64,000 nt of DNA. Origin: Escherichia coli (GTDB lineage: Bacteria > Pseudomonadota > Gammaproteobacteria > Enterobacterales > Enterobacteriaceae). The notes under the pieces were generated by a model. The model was given only the letters and a program-made list of their open reading frames with translations. It was not told where the DNA came from and ran no database searches. Below are positions 1-51,131 of the stretch, in pieces. The translations under genes were made by a program, and so were the position numbers. Every line of letters starts with the position of its first letter. Position 1 is the first letter of the stretch. The stretch lies in assembly GCF_030013205.1 (NCBI RefSeq), contig NZ_CP122648.1, one strand, 5' to 3'.

Positions 1-313
1 TCCTTAAATGATGAGCAAATAGATTTCTCTATCCACTACAACAAATTCAGCCTGCGTGATCCCATCCTGCACGGGGTAATAGATGTTATCCGTAATGCAT
101 TTTGAAAAAGTATTGTTACAGCCAGATCACAGCGAAGAACGAAAAAATGGCACAATCCAACAACAATTTTACATTTTCGCGACCGCTTTGGCTGCTTTCA
201 GGTCCGTTTCAATGATATACTGCCAGTCGTTAATTCAAAAATAGTTGATAATTACAACAATCTATTGAATTGAAACGCTTTCCTTCGTAATTCGCAACTG
301 GAACACGCACGCT

Positions 314-2982: not shown

Positions 2983-3014
2983 AAAAAAAACCCGCTGATT
3001 AAGCGGGTTTTGAA
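2983..3014. terminator. bidirectional intrinsic terminator between convergent crcB and cspE
   Basis: aaaaaaaacccgctgattaagcgggttttg hairpin with A-run and T-run flanks. Confidence 0.6.
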
Positions 3015-3030
3015 TTCTTGCTGACGTATC

Positions 3031-3240
3031 TTACAGAGCGATTACGTTTGCAGCAGAAGGGCCTTTGGCACCGTTAGTGATTTCGAACTCTACGCGCTGA
3101 CCTTCAGCAAGAGTTTTAAAACCATTAGTCTGGATTGCAGAGAAGTGTACAAACACGTCTTTGCTGCCGTCTTCCGGAGTAATGAAACCGAATCCTTTGG
3201 ACTCATTAAACCACTTAACGTTACCTTTAATCTTAGACAT
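3031..3240 (-). CDS. cspE: cold-shock-domain protein CspE
   Basis: 69 aa from internal ATG ([20 protein letters not shown]...); the track ORF is N-terminally extended. Confidence 0.95.
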
Positions 3241-3414
3241 CAAAATTACCTTTACATGAAAAATAGACACAAATGCTGTGTCGGTTACCAGTACACCAAT
3301 TGTGGTACGCTTTGTCCAGTGCAACTTTACTAAAAAGTGATAAAAGTCGCGTTATTTTTGATGTTAATTATTTTACCCATTGATTTTAAAGAGTTTACTA
3401 AAATTTCATTTGTC

Positions 3415-16335: not shown

Positions 16336-16564
16336 TCCTCTGATTTACAAAACACGCTAATTCGTCTTCCATAAACCATGACGATTAAGATTTATACATA
16401 ATGCGCTACATTGAGGAATTCCCTGAATGTGACGCAAATCACTTCAAAGAGTGAGCAACAGTCAGTATCATCATGTGAGTTAAACCCTCGCCGCCTGACG
16501 GTGAGGGTTTTCTTTTGGGTATGTTTATCTGCGACACTCGCAGTACCGACGACATGGAGTAAAA

Positions 16565-16975: not shown

Positions 16976-17330
16976 TCCCATCTGCACAAGCGATAACTCG
17001 CTTTGCCCAGAGGATGCACTCGCATCCTCTTTTCGCTCAAATATCAACCAGATTTATCATTTTGCTCTTAAGCGCAGCATTCTAATCTGAACTGGTTATT
17101 CATCTGCGGAACCTCATATGAGCGAAGCTCTCGGTATCACTGCATTTTATATATTCATAGCCGCGATTATTGTTGCTGCAGTGCTATACCTTGAACAACG
17201 CTGGTAGCGCCTGGTTTTATTTATTTTCCAGCTCAATAGCAAATTCAGATCAAATCAGCCTCGCAAATCATAGATTCATAACCAATAATGTGCTGTTATG
17301 TATACATGCAAAAACAAGGAGAGAATGCTT

Positions 17331-17759
17331 ATGTACAAGACAATCATCATGCCAGTGGATGTTTTCGAAATGGAATTGAGCGACAAAGCTGTTCGCCACG
17401 CTGAATTCCTCGCCCAGGATGACGGAGTTATTCATCTACTTCACGTACTACCCGGGTCAGCCAGCCTGAGCCTGCACCGTTTTGCCGCTGATGTGCGTCG
17501 TTTTGAAGAGCATCTGCAACATGAAGCAGAAGAACGTCTGCAAACGATGGTCAGCCACTTCACCATCGATCCTTCCCGCATTAAGCAACATGTCCGTTTT
17601 GGTAGCGTGCGGGATGAAGTCAATGAGTTGGCAGAAGAACTGGGGGCTGATGTTGTAGTTATCGGTTCGCGCAACCCTTCGATTTCGACCCATCTGTTAG
17701 GTTCTAACGCCTCGAGCGTGATCCGCCACGCCAATCTGCCGGTGCTGGTTGTGCGTTAA
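17331..17759 (+). CDS. uspG: universal stress protein G
   Basis: 142 aa from internal ATG ([14 protein letters not shown]...); matches UspG. Confidence 0.94.
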
Positions 17760-17775
17760 TTGCCAGAATAAATAT

Positions 17776-17812
17776 CCCGCCCTGCCCGGAGCCATCCCGG
17801 CGGGGCTTTTTA
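17776..17812 (+). terminator. uspG intrinsic terminator
   Basis: GC-rich hairpin (cccgccctgcccggagccatcccggcggggc) followed by ttttt. Confidence 0.6.
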
Positions 17813-17814
17813 TT

Positions 17815-18525
17815 GCCATAATAAATATCCTCCGGCATAGCCGGAGGTTTTTCAAATGCGCCTATAAGGCTCTCTTACCAGCCGCGCCCTAACAGGCGCA
17901 CACGATCTGACATTTGCATCCAACTTCGTTACTTACGGCCCGTAAACGGGCTGCCCGGATAGGGAATCGATAACTGCTCTCCCATTTTATCCTCTTCAAG
18001 CTGGTGCTTTATGTAATCCTGTATCTTCGCCGTGTTCTTACCCACTGTATCGACGTAGTACCCTCTGCACCAGAACTCCCTGTTCCTGTATTTGAATTTC
18101 AAATCACCAAACTGCTCGTAAAGCATCAGACTGCTTTTCCCTTTCAGATATCCCATAAACCCGGATACGCTCATTTTGGGCGGGATCTCCACAAGCATAT
18201 GGATATGATCTGCACAGCATTCAGCTTCCAGAATCCGTACGCTTTTCCACTCACACAGCTTTCTCAAAATACTGCCTATTGCTCTACGCTTCTCTCTGTA
18301 GAACACCTGTCTTCGGTATTTTGGCGCAAAAACTATGTGATATTTACAGTTCCATCGGGTGTGCGCTAAGCTCTTTTCGTTCCCCATTGGGACCCCCTTT
18401 TGATTTCTTGTTTGACACTTGCAGTTGCCAGACCGCAAGGTGTTTTAACAAATCAAAAGGGGTTTTAATAACTGGCTCAAAGCTGAAAGCTTTCCGGAAC
18501 CCCCAGCCTAGCTGGGGGTTTTCTG
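17815..18525 (-). mobile_element. IS200-like insertion sequence (IS200/IS605 family); boundaries approximate
   Basis: about 710 bp of extra DNA between the uspG and ahpF terminators; it encodes a 152-aa Y1 (HUH) transposase and has the IS200 left-end hairpin (aacccccagcctagctgggggtt) plus an RBS-proximal structured leader. Confidence 0.75.
17929..18387 (-). CDS. tnpA: IS200 transposase TnpA (Y1 HUH transposase)
   Basis: 152 aa from internal ATG (MGNEKSLAHTRWNCKYHIVFAPKYRR... with the HxH motif in ADHIHML); near-identical to Salmonella IS200 TnpA from memory. Confidence 0.93.
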   Translation of the reverse strand: MGNEKSLAHTRWNCKYHIVFAPKYRRQVFYREKRRAIGSILRKLCEWKSVRILEAECCADHIHMLVEIPPKMSVSGFMGYLKGKSSLMLYEQFGDLKFKYRNREFWCRGYYVDTVGKNTAKIQDYIKHQLEEDKMGEQLSIPYPGSPFTGRK

Positions 18526-18532
18526 TGCACAA

Positions 18533-18562
18533 AAAAGCCGCCAGGTTTGACCCCGGCGGCTA
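18533..18562 (-). terminator. ahpF intrinsic terminator
   Basis: on the minus strand, gccgccggggtcaaacctggcggc followed by tttttt. Confidence 0.7.
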
Positions 18563-18590
18563 AGCAATTGCAGGTGAATCTTACTTCTTC

Positions 18591-20156
18591 TTATGCTGTT
18601 TTGGTGCGAATCAGGTAGTCAAAAGCACTCAGAGAGGCTTTGGCACCTTCGCCAGTGGCGATGATGATCTGCTTGTACGGAACCGTTGTACAGTCACCCG
18701 CTGCGAACACGCCTTTCACGTTGGTTTCGCATTTCGCATCAATGATAATCTCGCCCATGCGGTTACGTTCGACTGCGCCTTCGAGCCAGTTGGTGTTCGG
18801 CAGCAGACCAATCTGCACGAAAATACCGGCCAGTTCGATGTTGTGAATATCGCCGCTGACACGATCGCGATATTCCAGACCTACGACTTTGCTACCGTCG
18901 CCTTTCACTTCCGTGGTTTGCGCATTCAGAATAATGTCGACGTTTTTCAGGCTGCGCAGTTTGTCCTGCAGAACCTGGTCGGCTTTCATTTCTGGCGCAA
19001 ATTCCAGCAGCGTTACGTGCTCAACGATACCCGCCAGGTCAATTGCCGCTTCCACGCCGGAGTTACCGCCGCCGATAACCGCTACGCGTTTACCTTTAAA
19101 CAGCGGGCCGTCGCAGTGCGGGCAGTAGGTCACGCCTTTGGTGCGATACTGATCTTCGCCCGGAACGTTCATGTTGCGCCATTTTGCACCGGTCGCCACG
19201 ATAATGCTGCGTGCTTTCAGTACCGCGCCAGAAGCTGTTTCAATCTGATGCAGGCCACCTTCAACCGCTGCCGGGATCAGTTTGCTGGCGCTCTGGCTGT
19301 CGATCACATCAACGTCGTATTCATCAACGTGAACTTTCAGCGCACCTGCCAGTTTCTGGCCTTCGGTCTTCGGTACAGAAATGTAGTTTTCGATATCAAC
19401 GGTATCGAGGATCTGACCACCAAAACGTTCGCCCATCAAACCAGTACGGATACCTTTACGTGCGGAGTAAATTGCTGCCGCTGCACCCGCCGGGCCGGAA
19501 CCGACGATTAATACGTCATAAGCATCACGCTTGTTCAGCTCTTCTGCCGCACGTTTTTCCGCGCCAGTATCAATTTTGGCGACGATTTCAGTCAACGTCA
19601 TGCGACCCTGACCAAACTCTTTCCCGTTTACGAACACTGCCGGAACGCCCATCACGTTGCGATCGGTGATTTCGTTCTGGAAGGTGCCGCCGTCAATTGC
19701 AGTGTGCTTGATGCGCGGGTTCAGTACGCTCATCAGGTTCAGCGCCTGCACCACATCCGGGCAGTTGTGGCAAGAGAGCGAGTAATAGGTTTCGAATTCA
19801 AAATCACCGTCAATATGGCGAATCTGCTCCAGCAGAGACTGCGCTTCTTTCGACGGATGACCACCTGTCCACAGCAACGCCAGTACCAGCGAGGTAAACT
19901 CGTGGCCCAGCGGGGAGCCTGCAAAACGTGGCCCCTGGTTGGAACCTGGCTTGGTGATCAGGAAAGACGGCTTACGCACTGGCAAGCTGTTATCTTCTTT
20001 AAAGGTGACTTTGTCTGACAGTTCTGCGATTTCAGCCAACAGTTCCTTGATTTCTGCCGATTTAGCGCTGTCATCCAGCGTGGCAATTAACTCAACAGGC
20101 TTGGTCAATTTCTCAAGGTAAGCCTTGAGTTGAGTTTTCATATTTGTGTCGAGCAT
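18591..20156 (-). CDS. ahpF: alkyl hydroperoxide reductase subunit F
   Basis: 521 aa from internal ATG ([17 protein letters not shown]...); matches AhpF. Confidence 0.96.
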
Positions 20157-20890: not shown

Positions 20891-21261
20891 CTATACTTCC
20901 TCCGTGTTTTCGATGAGATGTAAGGTAACCAATTTTTGCCGATTCGGCTAATGCGTTTCCATTATCAAATCGATAAGTTTTACCTTACAACCTTCGTAAG
21001 ACAACTTTGTGAACTTTGCACCGCCAGCGGCGATAAAAAGTAAAATGGCCCCCTTTCCAGGTGACCGTGTAATCTGAACTACCCTTTGGTATCTTCAGCG
21101 CCTGCCTGCAGGCTGAGGTGTTGCCCTTACAAATGCAACAACGACATGGATTACAACACCCTCATAAACAAAGGGCAATCACCTGATCTAAGCTCTTACC
21201 TATGGCAGTGATAGGTTATGCCTTTTACCCGACTTTTGCACTGACTGAAAAGGACAAATTA

Positions 21262-49391: not shown

Positions 49392-49489
49392 GCCGGATGC
49401 GGCGTGAACGCCTTATCCGGCCTACAAAAATCTTGCCAATTCAATATATTGCAGGACCACGTAGGCCTGATAAGCGTAGCGCATCAGGC
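49392..49489. repeat. REP (palindromic unit) elements, BIME-like pair
   Basis: gccggatgcggcgtgaacgccttatccggcctac and the inverted gtaggcctgataagcgtagcgcatcaggc between fepA and entD. Confidence 0.8.
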
Positions 49490-50268: not shown

Positions 50269-50421
50269 CTACTTCTTCGGTTCGTAAGCGAGAACAGCCT
50301 TAAACTCAATATTACGTTCCTTCACCGTAAACTCACACAGCGAGTCTCCGACCAGAAGCGTAAATCCCAGCACCGTTAAACACAGCACTATGACTGCCAC
50401 AAGGGCATATTTCGTCAGCAT
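50269..50421 (-). CDS. hokE: Hok-family membrane toxin (HokE-like), copy 1
   Basis: 50 aa [50 protein letters not shown]. Confidence 0.85.
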
Positions 50422-50566
50422 GTTTATATTGCCTCCATGCGAAGAAGGGACTACCATCCGAGTTGTTGAGGTTCGGAGTGGCAGCCCCAGGATTGATAGA
50501 AATATCTCCTGGGGCTTCATCTTTCCAGACCTCAGAGTTAACCTGAAACCGGAAAGCTTCAGGCAC
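50333..50566 (-). CDS. mok-like overlapping reading frame (modulator of hok translation), copy 1
   Basis: 77-codon ORF in a different frame, starting upstream of hok and ending inside it ([16 protein letters not shown]...). Confidence 0.5.
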
Positions 50567-50630
50567 CCGCTGTTATCTTACCCTTCCTTAGCAAAATAAC
50601 TGTTTATTTATACAGCAAGTCCTGTTTCGG
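50560..50630 (+). ncRNA. predicted Sok-like antisense RNA, copy 1 (position inferred)
   Basis: inferred only from hok/sok architecture (antisense to the mok initiation region / hok leader); hairpin agtcctgtttcggact present; no promoter confirmed. Confidence 0.3.
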
Positions 50631-50670: not shown

Positions 50671-51131
50671 TCGCCCGCAGCCATCACTGACCACGGGCGA
50701 AAGTGTAAAGCAGGTGCCTTACCACCCTGACCTGACAACCGGATATGCGGGGATTACTCCCCGCACAACGGCTACTTCTTCGGTTCGTAAGCGAGAACAG
50801 CCTTAAACTCAATATTACGTTCCTTCACCGTAAACTCACACAGCGAGTCTCCGACTAGAAGCGTAAATCCCAGTACCGTCAAACACAGCACTATGACTGC
50901 CACAAGGGCATATTTCGTCAGCATGTTTATATTGCCTCCATGCGAAGAAGGGACTACCATCCAAATTGTCTGGTTTGGAGTGGCAGCCCCAGGGTTGATA
51001 GAAATATCTCCTGGGGCTTCATCTTTCCAGACCTCAGAGTTAACCTGAAACCGGAAAGCTTCAGGCACCCGCCGTTATCTTACCCTTCTTCAGCAAAATA
51101 GCTGTTTATTTATACAGTGAGTCCTGTTTCG
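50671..51131 (-). other. hok/sok-type type I toxin-antitoxin locus, copy 2 (ybdK-proximal)
   Basis: second unit of the tandem repeat; hok coding sequence differs from copy 1 by 3 synonymous substitutions; flanks carry indels. Confidence 0.7.
50772..50924 (-). CDS. hokE: Hok-family membrane toxin (HokE-like), copy 2
   Basis: 50 aa, protein identical to copy 1; the upstream mok-like frame is fused in-frame here (98-codon ORF 50772..51068). Confidence 0.85.

Follow-up and report, generated by a model that had tools for sequence, protein, structure and literature searches.

A complete IS200C-type insertion sequence behind the ahpF terminator of Escherichia coli, and the terminator-abutting geometry of IS200-group copies

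Introduction

The closest described relatives of the element analysed here are the IS200 copies of Salmonella, for which a regulatory layout has been published. A bidirectional terminator occupies nt 12–34 at the left end, a weak promoter lies near nt 40, a stem-loop at nt 69–138 occludes the Shine-Dalgarno sequence, and a 90-nt antisense RNA, art200, is encoded as well (PMC4513863, PMC5435999). The left-end hairpin blocks transcription entering from outside (PMC4513863, PMC5435999), the leader stem-loop represses translation (PMC4513863), and Y125F TnpA is the catalytically dead control for the Salmonella element (PMC4513863).

IS608 of Helicobacter pylori and ISDra2 of Deinococcus radiodurans encode a homologous TnpA and, like the element described below, carry subterminal hairpins that each follow a short guide. 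They also insert 3′ of a short left-flank target, without duplication, and their orientation follows the lagging-strand template. According to the IS608 model, cleavage takes place at a tetranucleotide complementary to the 4 nt that lie 5′ of each hairpin foot and act as a guide (PMC6006769). The targets of IS608 and ISDra2 are fixed words, TTAC or TTGAT, whereas our element adjoins a T-run behind a GC hairpin, and it differs further in having neither tnpB nor an omega RNA. IS1541 of Yersinia pestis and Y. pseudotuberculosis, which occurs in tandem copies in Y. pestis, has a left-end hairpin 22-mer identical to that of our element, and a hairpin plus T-run likewise abuts its left end; its first 12 nt, GTGCCCAG, differ slightly from the GTGCACAG found here. 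E. coli K-12 carries IS609, which is a different element and not IS200. The published inventory of K-12 insertion sequences contains no IS200 and one element of the IS200/IS605 family, IS609 (PMC5009759 Table 1), which never transposed in mutation-accumulation lines (PMC5009759).

Here we analyse a 64,000-nt stretch of E. coli DNA (contig NZ_CP122648.1 of assembly GCF_030013205.1, hereafter the window), in which an earlier note had pointed to an IS200-like insertion between uspG and ahpF. We conclude that positions 17820–18530 very probably hold an intact IS200C, a member of the IS200 group of the IS200/IS605 family, which is probably competent for transposition and which entered directly behind the T-run that ends the ahpF terminator. 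The copy itself is known, ordinary, already annotated and neutral. The analysis adds its exact ends and orientation, the recurrent use of its target site, a quantified rule relating IS200-group insertions to terminators and the lagging strand, and a hypothesis in which the target mimics the right end of the element.

Results

The insertion and its limits

In the window the spacer between the convergent genes uspG and ahpF is 831 bp long (17760–18590), and the identical locus has been annotated by PGAP in strain K_EC180. Alignment with the empty sites of WG5::PA8 and K-12 MG1655 reveals an exact insertion of 711 bp; the remainder of the spacer has two substitutions. The normal length of the spacer is 120 bp. 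In MG1655 it is empty, and its 120 bp are exactly 711 bp short of the window spacer. The genes and the insertion are arranged as follows.

17331–17759, plus strand: uspG (Pfam Usp and RefSeq annotation of the identical locus)
17820–18530, minus strand: complete IS200C-type insertion sequence, 711 bp (difference between filled and empty site)
18591–20156, minus strand: ahpF (Pfam Pyr_redox_2 plus thioredoxin, and RefSeq annotation of the identical locus)

The estimate of about 710 bp of extra DNA in the earlier note thus becomes a measured 711 bp at 17820–18530. The IS is co-oriented with ahpF on the minus strand, and we number it in that orientation, so that nt 1 is window position 18530. The junction lies within an A/T run, which leaves the ends ambiguous by up to 2 nt. 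There is no target-site duplication, as the occupied site minus the empty site equals 711 bp exactly; one extra A/T at the junction in some other lineages may be due to register slippage. The tips, GTGCACAG at the left and GGATATTTATT at the right, are common to independent copies at hns/galU, in the prophage gene lom and at ldrD/bcsG. They begin with GTGCAC and end with TTTATT, which are not inverted repeats of each other, and the element has no terminal inverted repeats.

The view of the earlier note that K-12 carries no IS200 agrees with the empty MG1655 spacer and with the published inventory, with the qualification that the inventory does include a family relative in IS609, which is absent from the uspG–ahpF spacer.

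The surroundings of the site also vary. The window and the matching swine strains have the order rnk, yldA, uspG without ybdR (window 16976–17330), while a 1.2-kb ybdR lies between yldA and uspG in K-12 MG1655, XJ5.2 and E100341. Several Rfam matches lie elsewhere in the window. Gathering-level matches to the cspA thermoregulator (2983–3341, minus), the rnk leader (16411–16519, plus) and STnc70 (21035–21128, minus, adjoining ahpC) represent housekeeping RNA elements of the expected kind. There is a match to the ES036 sRNA at 49427–49468, and two adjacent matches to sok antitoxin RNA on the minus strand (50413–50568 and 50916–51070, ~82 bits each) imply tandem hok/sok-type loci.

Transposase

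The insertion contains one open reading frame with family support.

17929–18387, minus strand: tnpA, 152-aa Y1/HUH transposase, element nt 144–602 (Pfam Y1_Tnp, NCBIfam transpos_IS200)

TnpA matches Pfam Y1_Tnp (PF01797) over its full length with an E-value of 3.8e-38 (130.7 bits) and the NCBIfam equivalog model transpos_IS200 (NF033573) with an E-value of 1.9e-43 (147.7 bits, compared to a cut-off of 55). It is 95% identical to the TnpA of Salmonella IS200F, and also 95% identical to a Y. pestis transposase over 136 aa. The closest relatives of known structure are the Sulfolobus TnpA proteins (2EC2, 2F4F), IS608 TnpA (2A6M/2VJV) and ISDra2 TnpA (2XM3), with which the DHIH and Y-I-x-x-Q motifs of the window protein align (E about 1e-16 to 1e-19). 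The HUH motif is formed by H61, I62 and H63, and the catalytic tyrosine is Y125 in a Y-x3-Q context. The near-identity to IS200 TnpA claimed earlier is borne out by the identity to IS200F and by the Pfam and NCBIfam matches.

The exact protein sequence is WP_000526135.1, which occurs on at least 1000 contigs under the public name “IS200/IS605-like element IS200C family transposase”. This RefSeq/PGAP name of an identical protein suggests that the subtype is IS200C. No other family-supported reading frame is found in the 711 bp; there is no tnpB and no iscB. The element thus shows the features of the IS200 group, namely a Y1 HUH transposase, tnpA alone, a length of ~700 bp and subterminal hairpins at both ends, and all family tests that were run on the IS200-like element in the spacer came out positive.

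Hairpins and leader

The non-coding parts of the element are listed here from left end to right end.

18498–18520, minus strand: left-end subterminal hairpin AACCCCCAGC-TAG-GCTGGGGGTT, element nt 11–33 (perfect 10-bp stem)
18397–18520, minus strand (tnpA-sense): tnpA 5′ leader, Rfam RF01405 (STnc490), model positions 1–124 of 124
Element nt 38–52, minus strand: small hairpin (Rfam match)
18394–18462, minus strand: long stem burying the Shine-Dalgarno sequence AAAGGGGGU, element nt about 69–137 (RNA fold)
18379–18468, plus strand: putative position of the art200 antisense sRNA, ~90 nt (placed solely from homology to PMC4513863 Fig. 1)
17857–17900, minus strand: inverted repeat TGCGCC...GGCGCA, element nt 631–674 (13-nt arms, 85% complementary)
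17829–17847, minus strand: right-end subterminal hairpin CCTCCGGC-TAT-GCCGGAGG, element nt 684–702 (fold and inverted repeat)
17820–17828, minus strand: 9-nt tail ATATTTATT ending the element, element nt 703–711 (empty-site comparison)

The left-end hairpin, which the earlier note had called characteristic of IS200, is preceded by GAAAA, has a DNA fold of –11.7 kcal/mol (z –4.0) and lies inside the full-length STnc490 match, which scores 146.4 bits compared to a gathering score of 56. In analogy to IS608, this would be the hairpin bound by TnpA. The stem over the Shine-Dalgarno sequence folds as RNA with –40.4 kcal/mol (z –3.8) and its inverted repeat is 94% complementary. At its putative position art200 is complementary to the leader and to the first three tnpA codons. 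The TGCGCC...GGCGCA repeat follows the tnpA stop codon and precedes the right-end hairpin. The latter is preceded by GAAAAA, has a DNA fold of –10.0 kcal/mol (z –4.2) and appears terminator-like on both strands in a terminator scan. The two end hairpins are alike in the same orientation (78%), with GAAAA before both.

Judged from the sequence, the anatomy of the window element is that of the published IS200. Salmonella IS200 (IS200F and others) and E. coli IS200C belong to the same size class of 707–711 bp, have a single tnpA with 95% identical products, and share the left-end terminator hairpin (nt 11–33 here, 12–34 as published), the Shine-Dalgarno stem-loop and the Rfam family. The numbering is offset by ~1 nt, the left junction being in a T-run, and nothing substantive differs.

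The landing site

The element lies between two intrinsic terminators.

18531–18561, minus strand: ahpF intrinsic terminator, the target (terminator scan, DNA fold)
17779–17814, plus strand: uspG intrinsic terminator, intact (hairpin 17779–17806, then TTTTTATT)

The ahpF terminator consists of the hairpin AGCCGCCGGGG-TCAAA-CCTGGCGGCT at 18536–18561 followed by TTTTTT at 18531–18536, and the first base of the IS directly adjoins the end of this T-run. Its DNA fold is –11.2 kcal/mol (z –4.05) and its sequence is identical in the empty sites. At the other side 5 nt separate the right tip of the IS from the uspG terminator. Comparison with the empty sites, the terminator scan and folding agree that both terminators keep their stems and T-tracts, in line with the earlier proposal that the element sits between two rho-independent terminators and disrupts neither gene. 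The 3′ ends of ahpF and uspG would be expected to be little affected, since both terminators are intact and the end hairpins of the IS add terminator-like blocks. Rfam matches near the site to anti-hemB, snoZ223 and Actino-pnp are below their gathering scores and we attribute them to chance or to generic terminator shape.

A 22-nt direct repeat of 91% identity lies at 17756–17777 and 17809–17830. Directly 5′ of the uspG terminator hairpin, the native sequence (AATAAATATCC; in K-12 AATAAGTATCC) agrees with the right tip of the IS, and on the minus strand the uspG terminator reads as a hairpin plus ATATTTATT, the same as the right end of the IS. This likeness may be a coincidence in T-rich sequence or a convergence on terminator shape; no IS insertion was seen at this minus-strand uspG hairpin plus ATATTTATT.

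Recurrent insertion at the ahpF terminator

The core of the IS finds a match in 3090 of 5426 complete E. coli genomes, ~43% being without any match, and 2063 of the 5426 have a copy that covers at least 80% of the core. The number of IS200 places per genome has a median of 1 and a maximum of 35. Of the 5426 genomes, just 28 contain the IS at the uspG/ahpF site, always in one orientation, and IS-free references lack the 711 bp, so the spacer comparison that the earlier note had proposed supports an insertion. Eighteen of the 28 are swine ETEC or O139:H1 isolates with 99.8–100% identity to the window, which belongs to this group or is indistinguishable from it; the remaining ten come from varied human, bovine and hospital sources. 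The swine ETEC/O139:H1 group has 19–33 IS200 places per genome, far above the average E. coli copy number of 2.9 (PMC4513863).

We compared junctions and IS variants in six of the other ten filled genomes plus the window. Three junction registers are present (2A-IS-6A, 3A-IS-6A and 4A-IS-5A) and three IS variants, with 0, 4 and 29 differences over 709 bp. Five genomes share one and the same IS core, with flanks that differ at 8–40 of 430 positions. The variant with 4 differences occurs in one genome and is identical to a prophage-borne copy elsewhere; the variant with 29 differences also occurs in one genome. The site is occupied on both spacer alleles, with or without the adjoining ybdR. As the registers and the IS variants differ and the flanks have diverged, with the orientation constant, these sequence comparisons identify the ahpF terminator as a recurrent hot spot, entered at least three or four times independently in different lineages, and not the site of one inherited event.

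These results bear on the possibility that the element is ancestral at the locus and that K-12 and most other E. coli have lost it by precise excision or deletion. Elements of the IS200/IS605 family do excise precisely, and an empty site would then look like one that was never occupied. However, ancestry is hard to reconcile with a site that is occupied in just 28 of 5426 genomes, on either spacer allele and whether or not ybdR is present. The differing junction registers and a 4%-divergent IS variant at the same site speak against it too, and IS cores with 0 differences over 709 positions between flanks that differ by 2–9% indicate that the IS is younger than its hosts. We regard an ancestral element as scarcely credible and retain recurrent insertion.

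Another reading is that the copy is not a live transposon and has become a domesticated regulatory locus, kept for the 5′tnpA and art200 sRNAs. For Salmonella, regulation of host genes by both RNAs has been described, and IS200 has been called essentially immobile (PMC5435999; bioRxiv 10.1101/2024.06.26.600842), and the window leader matches its Rfam model almost perfectly. Yet the tnpA reading frame and the catalytic residues are intact, the insertion sites are polymorphic among strains with up to 35 places per genome (19–33 in the swine lineage), and identical copies occur in diverged backgrounds. Domestication in place of mobility therefore appears very unlikely. With an intact tnpA, polymorphic sites, many copies and identical copies in diverged backgrounds, the comparisons indicate that IS200C has probably been mobile recently, and the roles of sRNA source and transposon are not mutually exclusive.

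Several partial copies were also encountered. Plasmids of the pO157 type (~92–95 kb; six hits, H28, H29 and H96–H99) contain unannotated fragments of 130–143 bp that are 92–93% identical to the right-end part of IS200; these are O157:H7 virulence plasmids. In other large E. coli plasmids (H17, H23, H89, H92) IS200C is interrupted or truncated by IS1 after ~327–343 bp. The exact 22-nt left-end hairpin is also present in metagenome-assembled genomes assigned to Bacillota, Peptococcaceae, Saccharibacteria, Elusimicrobiaceae, Oxalobacter and Desulfovibrionaceae (Mailhella), often at contig ends and with the first 12 nt particular to each group. This suggests a very wide horizontal spread, although some of the cases could be binning contamination.

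Terminators at other IS200-group insertion sites

At all four E. coli sites that we inspected, the element directly follows a gene terminator, and the gene (ahpF, galU, lom or ldrD) has the same orientation as the IS. At the ldrD/bcsG site (strains AR_0067 and HCP17S3_I4) IS200C follows right after the ldrD terminator, which resembles that of ahpF, and its right tip is only ~5 nt from the bcsG stop codon. Four hits (H59–H62) that first appeared to be transduction of the ahpF terminator together with IS200 are in reality this similar ldrD terminator beside bcsG.

We then scanned species-representative genomes for the 22-nt left-end hairpin, which gave at least 120 loci from Y. pestis, Vibrio ruber, V. 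penaeicida, Brenneria, Edwardsiella, Pluralibacter, Mailhella, and Oxalobacter, Bacillota and Peptococcaceae MAGs. The sample is dominated by few genomes, with ~45 loci from one Y. pestis assembly besides Vibrio ruber and Mailhella MAGs. Among the matches listed, the 75 nt upstream of the IS contain almost everywhere a GC hairpin and a T-run abutting the element. A strict test called for a perfect stem (5 bp or longer, three or more GC pairs), a loop of 3–8 nt and then a T-tail with five or more T in 8 nt, the whole ending at the junction. It is passed by 94 of 121 unique left flanks (78%) among the matches listed, compared to 55 of 5000 random controls, 271 of 3000 T-rich controls, and 387 of 3840 T-rich TT-V sites outside long ORFs, this last non-coding control being crude in that only ORFs of at least 100 aa were excluded. 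Most of the 27 flanks that fail have imperfect hairpins by eye. The terminator-abutting geometry is found in about 80–90% of the IS200-group copies surveyed.

The stem ends 6–9 nt from the IS in the surveyed flanks, and the distance from the right-end hairpin to the right tip is 9 nt. Flank positions –6 to –1 are near TTTTTT over the 121 flanks among the matches listed, and T is found at –2 and –1 in 121 of 121, partly as a consequence of how the boundary was defined. The 6 nt 5′ of the target hairpins contain on average 3.1 A compared to 2.1 in a control that includes many non-terminators (p = 4e-9); the ahpF target hairpin has no such 5′ A-tract. The expectation that IS200 favours hairpin-rich sites was therefore right in that 94 of 121 flanks have a hairpin at the junction, and too vague in its wording, the actual site being directly 3′ of the T-run of a terminator on the same strand.

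In Y. pestis NCTC5923 there are head-to-tail tandem copies of IS1541 exactly 710 bp apart (L080 2660–3391 and L082 12604–13335). The second copy begins directly after the right tip of the first, which ends in GGATATTTATT, and the junction formed is that expected of a circular intermediate.

Strand and replication

GC skew, used here as a proxy for the direction of replication, is negative throughout on the plus strand of the window, so that the IS top strand lies on the G-rich strand and has the sequence of the lagging-strand template, in agreement with reports on this family. Among the matches listed, the IS top strand shows positive GC skew at 83 of 99 surveyed loci (p = 4e-12). Insertion behind the opposite-strand uspG terminator was found in none of the 5426 genomes, as against 28 behind the ahpF terminator, although uspG offers TTTTTATT.

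Discussion

The association with terminators has a simpler potential origin than targeting. If TnpA needed only a short T-rich target, insertions would persist where they are harmless, past the ends of genes. The guide and target logic of IS608 needs only 4–5 nt (PMC6006769). T-runs are concentrated at terminators, and IS200 can enter genes, for example in hisD984 of Salmonella. An insertion inside inv of Y. pestis is a further such case. Survival of this kind does not readily account for an in-register hairpin at 78% of IS flanks as opposed to 10% of T-rich TT-V sites outside long ORFs, nor for the tight spacing of 6–9 nt between stem and junction, nor for an orientation that is strict, 28 to 0, despite TTTTTATT on the uspG strand, nor for the reuse of the right end of another copy as a target. 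We therefore favour real targeting of a hairpin plus T-run and keep survivorship as a partial alternative, which we think unlikely to be the explanation.

Activity and a single-strand mechanism are probable for the window IS200C from its homology to IS608 and ISDra2. Following the paradigm of these elements, TnpA would excise the top strand as a single-stranded circle and insert it into DNA that is single-stranded at the replication fork. T-rich cleavage sites would be selected by the GAAAA guide bases, whose AAAA would pair with TTTT (left flank) and TATT (right tip). To this we add an inference of our own, that the target must also offer a GC hairpin 6–9 nt upstream of the cut. An intrinsic terminator would then act as a mimic of the right end, with the same geometry as its hairpin plus 9 nt. 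We put forward tentatively, as a possibility about which we remain more doubtful than confident, that IS200-group transposases pick their targets by structure and sequence together: a terminator hairpin, the end of a T-run 6–9 nt further on, and the lagging-strand template, in imitation of the right end (hairpin plus ATATTTATT). The idea stems from the agreement between the stem-junction spacing of 6–9 nt at the targets and the 9 nt at the right end. It departs from the IS608 model, where a target hairpin is unnecessary.

In a full-text search, with several older primary papers outside its coverage, we found no explicit statement on terminator targeting by IS200. The idea is not wholly new, since Odaert et al. 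(1998, J Bacteriol 180:178) reportedly saw stem-loops resembling terminators at 8 of 14 IS1541 sites and regarded them as possible hot spots. Class C group II introns provide a parallel. They home just downstream of the stem-loops of intrinsic terminators, reading structure and a short sequence in single-stranded DNA. These introns are unrelated retroelements, consisting of a ribozyme plus a reverse transcriptase, and their resemblance to IS200 is convergent only.

The copy described here sets the strain apart from K-12, agrees with the swine ETEC/O139:H1 group with its many IS200 copies, and could be of use as a typing marker. With regard to the family, the terminator-targeting geometry is a modest refinement. 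The placement of IS200-group elements behind intrinsic terminators provides a testable target rule for the least understood branch of IS200/IS605, and it accounts for the rarity of gene disruption by these elements. If the right-end-mimic proposal is true, terminators would be safe harbours throughout the genome and recurrent hits such as those at the ahpF terminator would be explained. It would also speak against IS200 as an immobile relic, since diverged lineages of E. coli have received identical copies at one and the same site. Repeated independent insertion argues that IS200 is mobile in natural populations of E. coli despite its dormant reputation.
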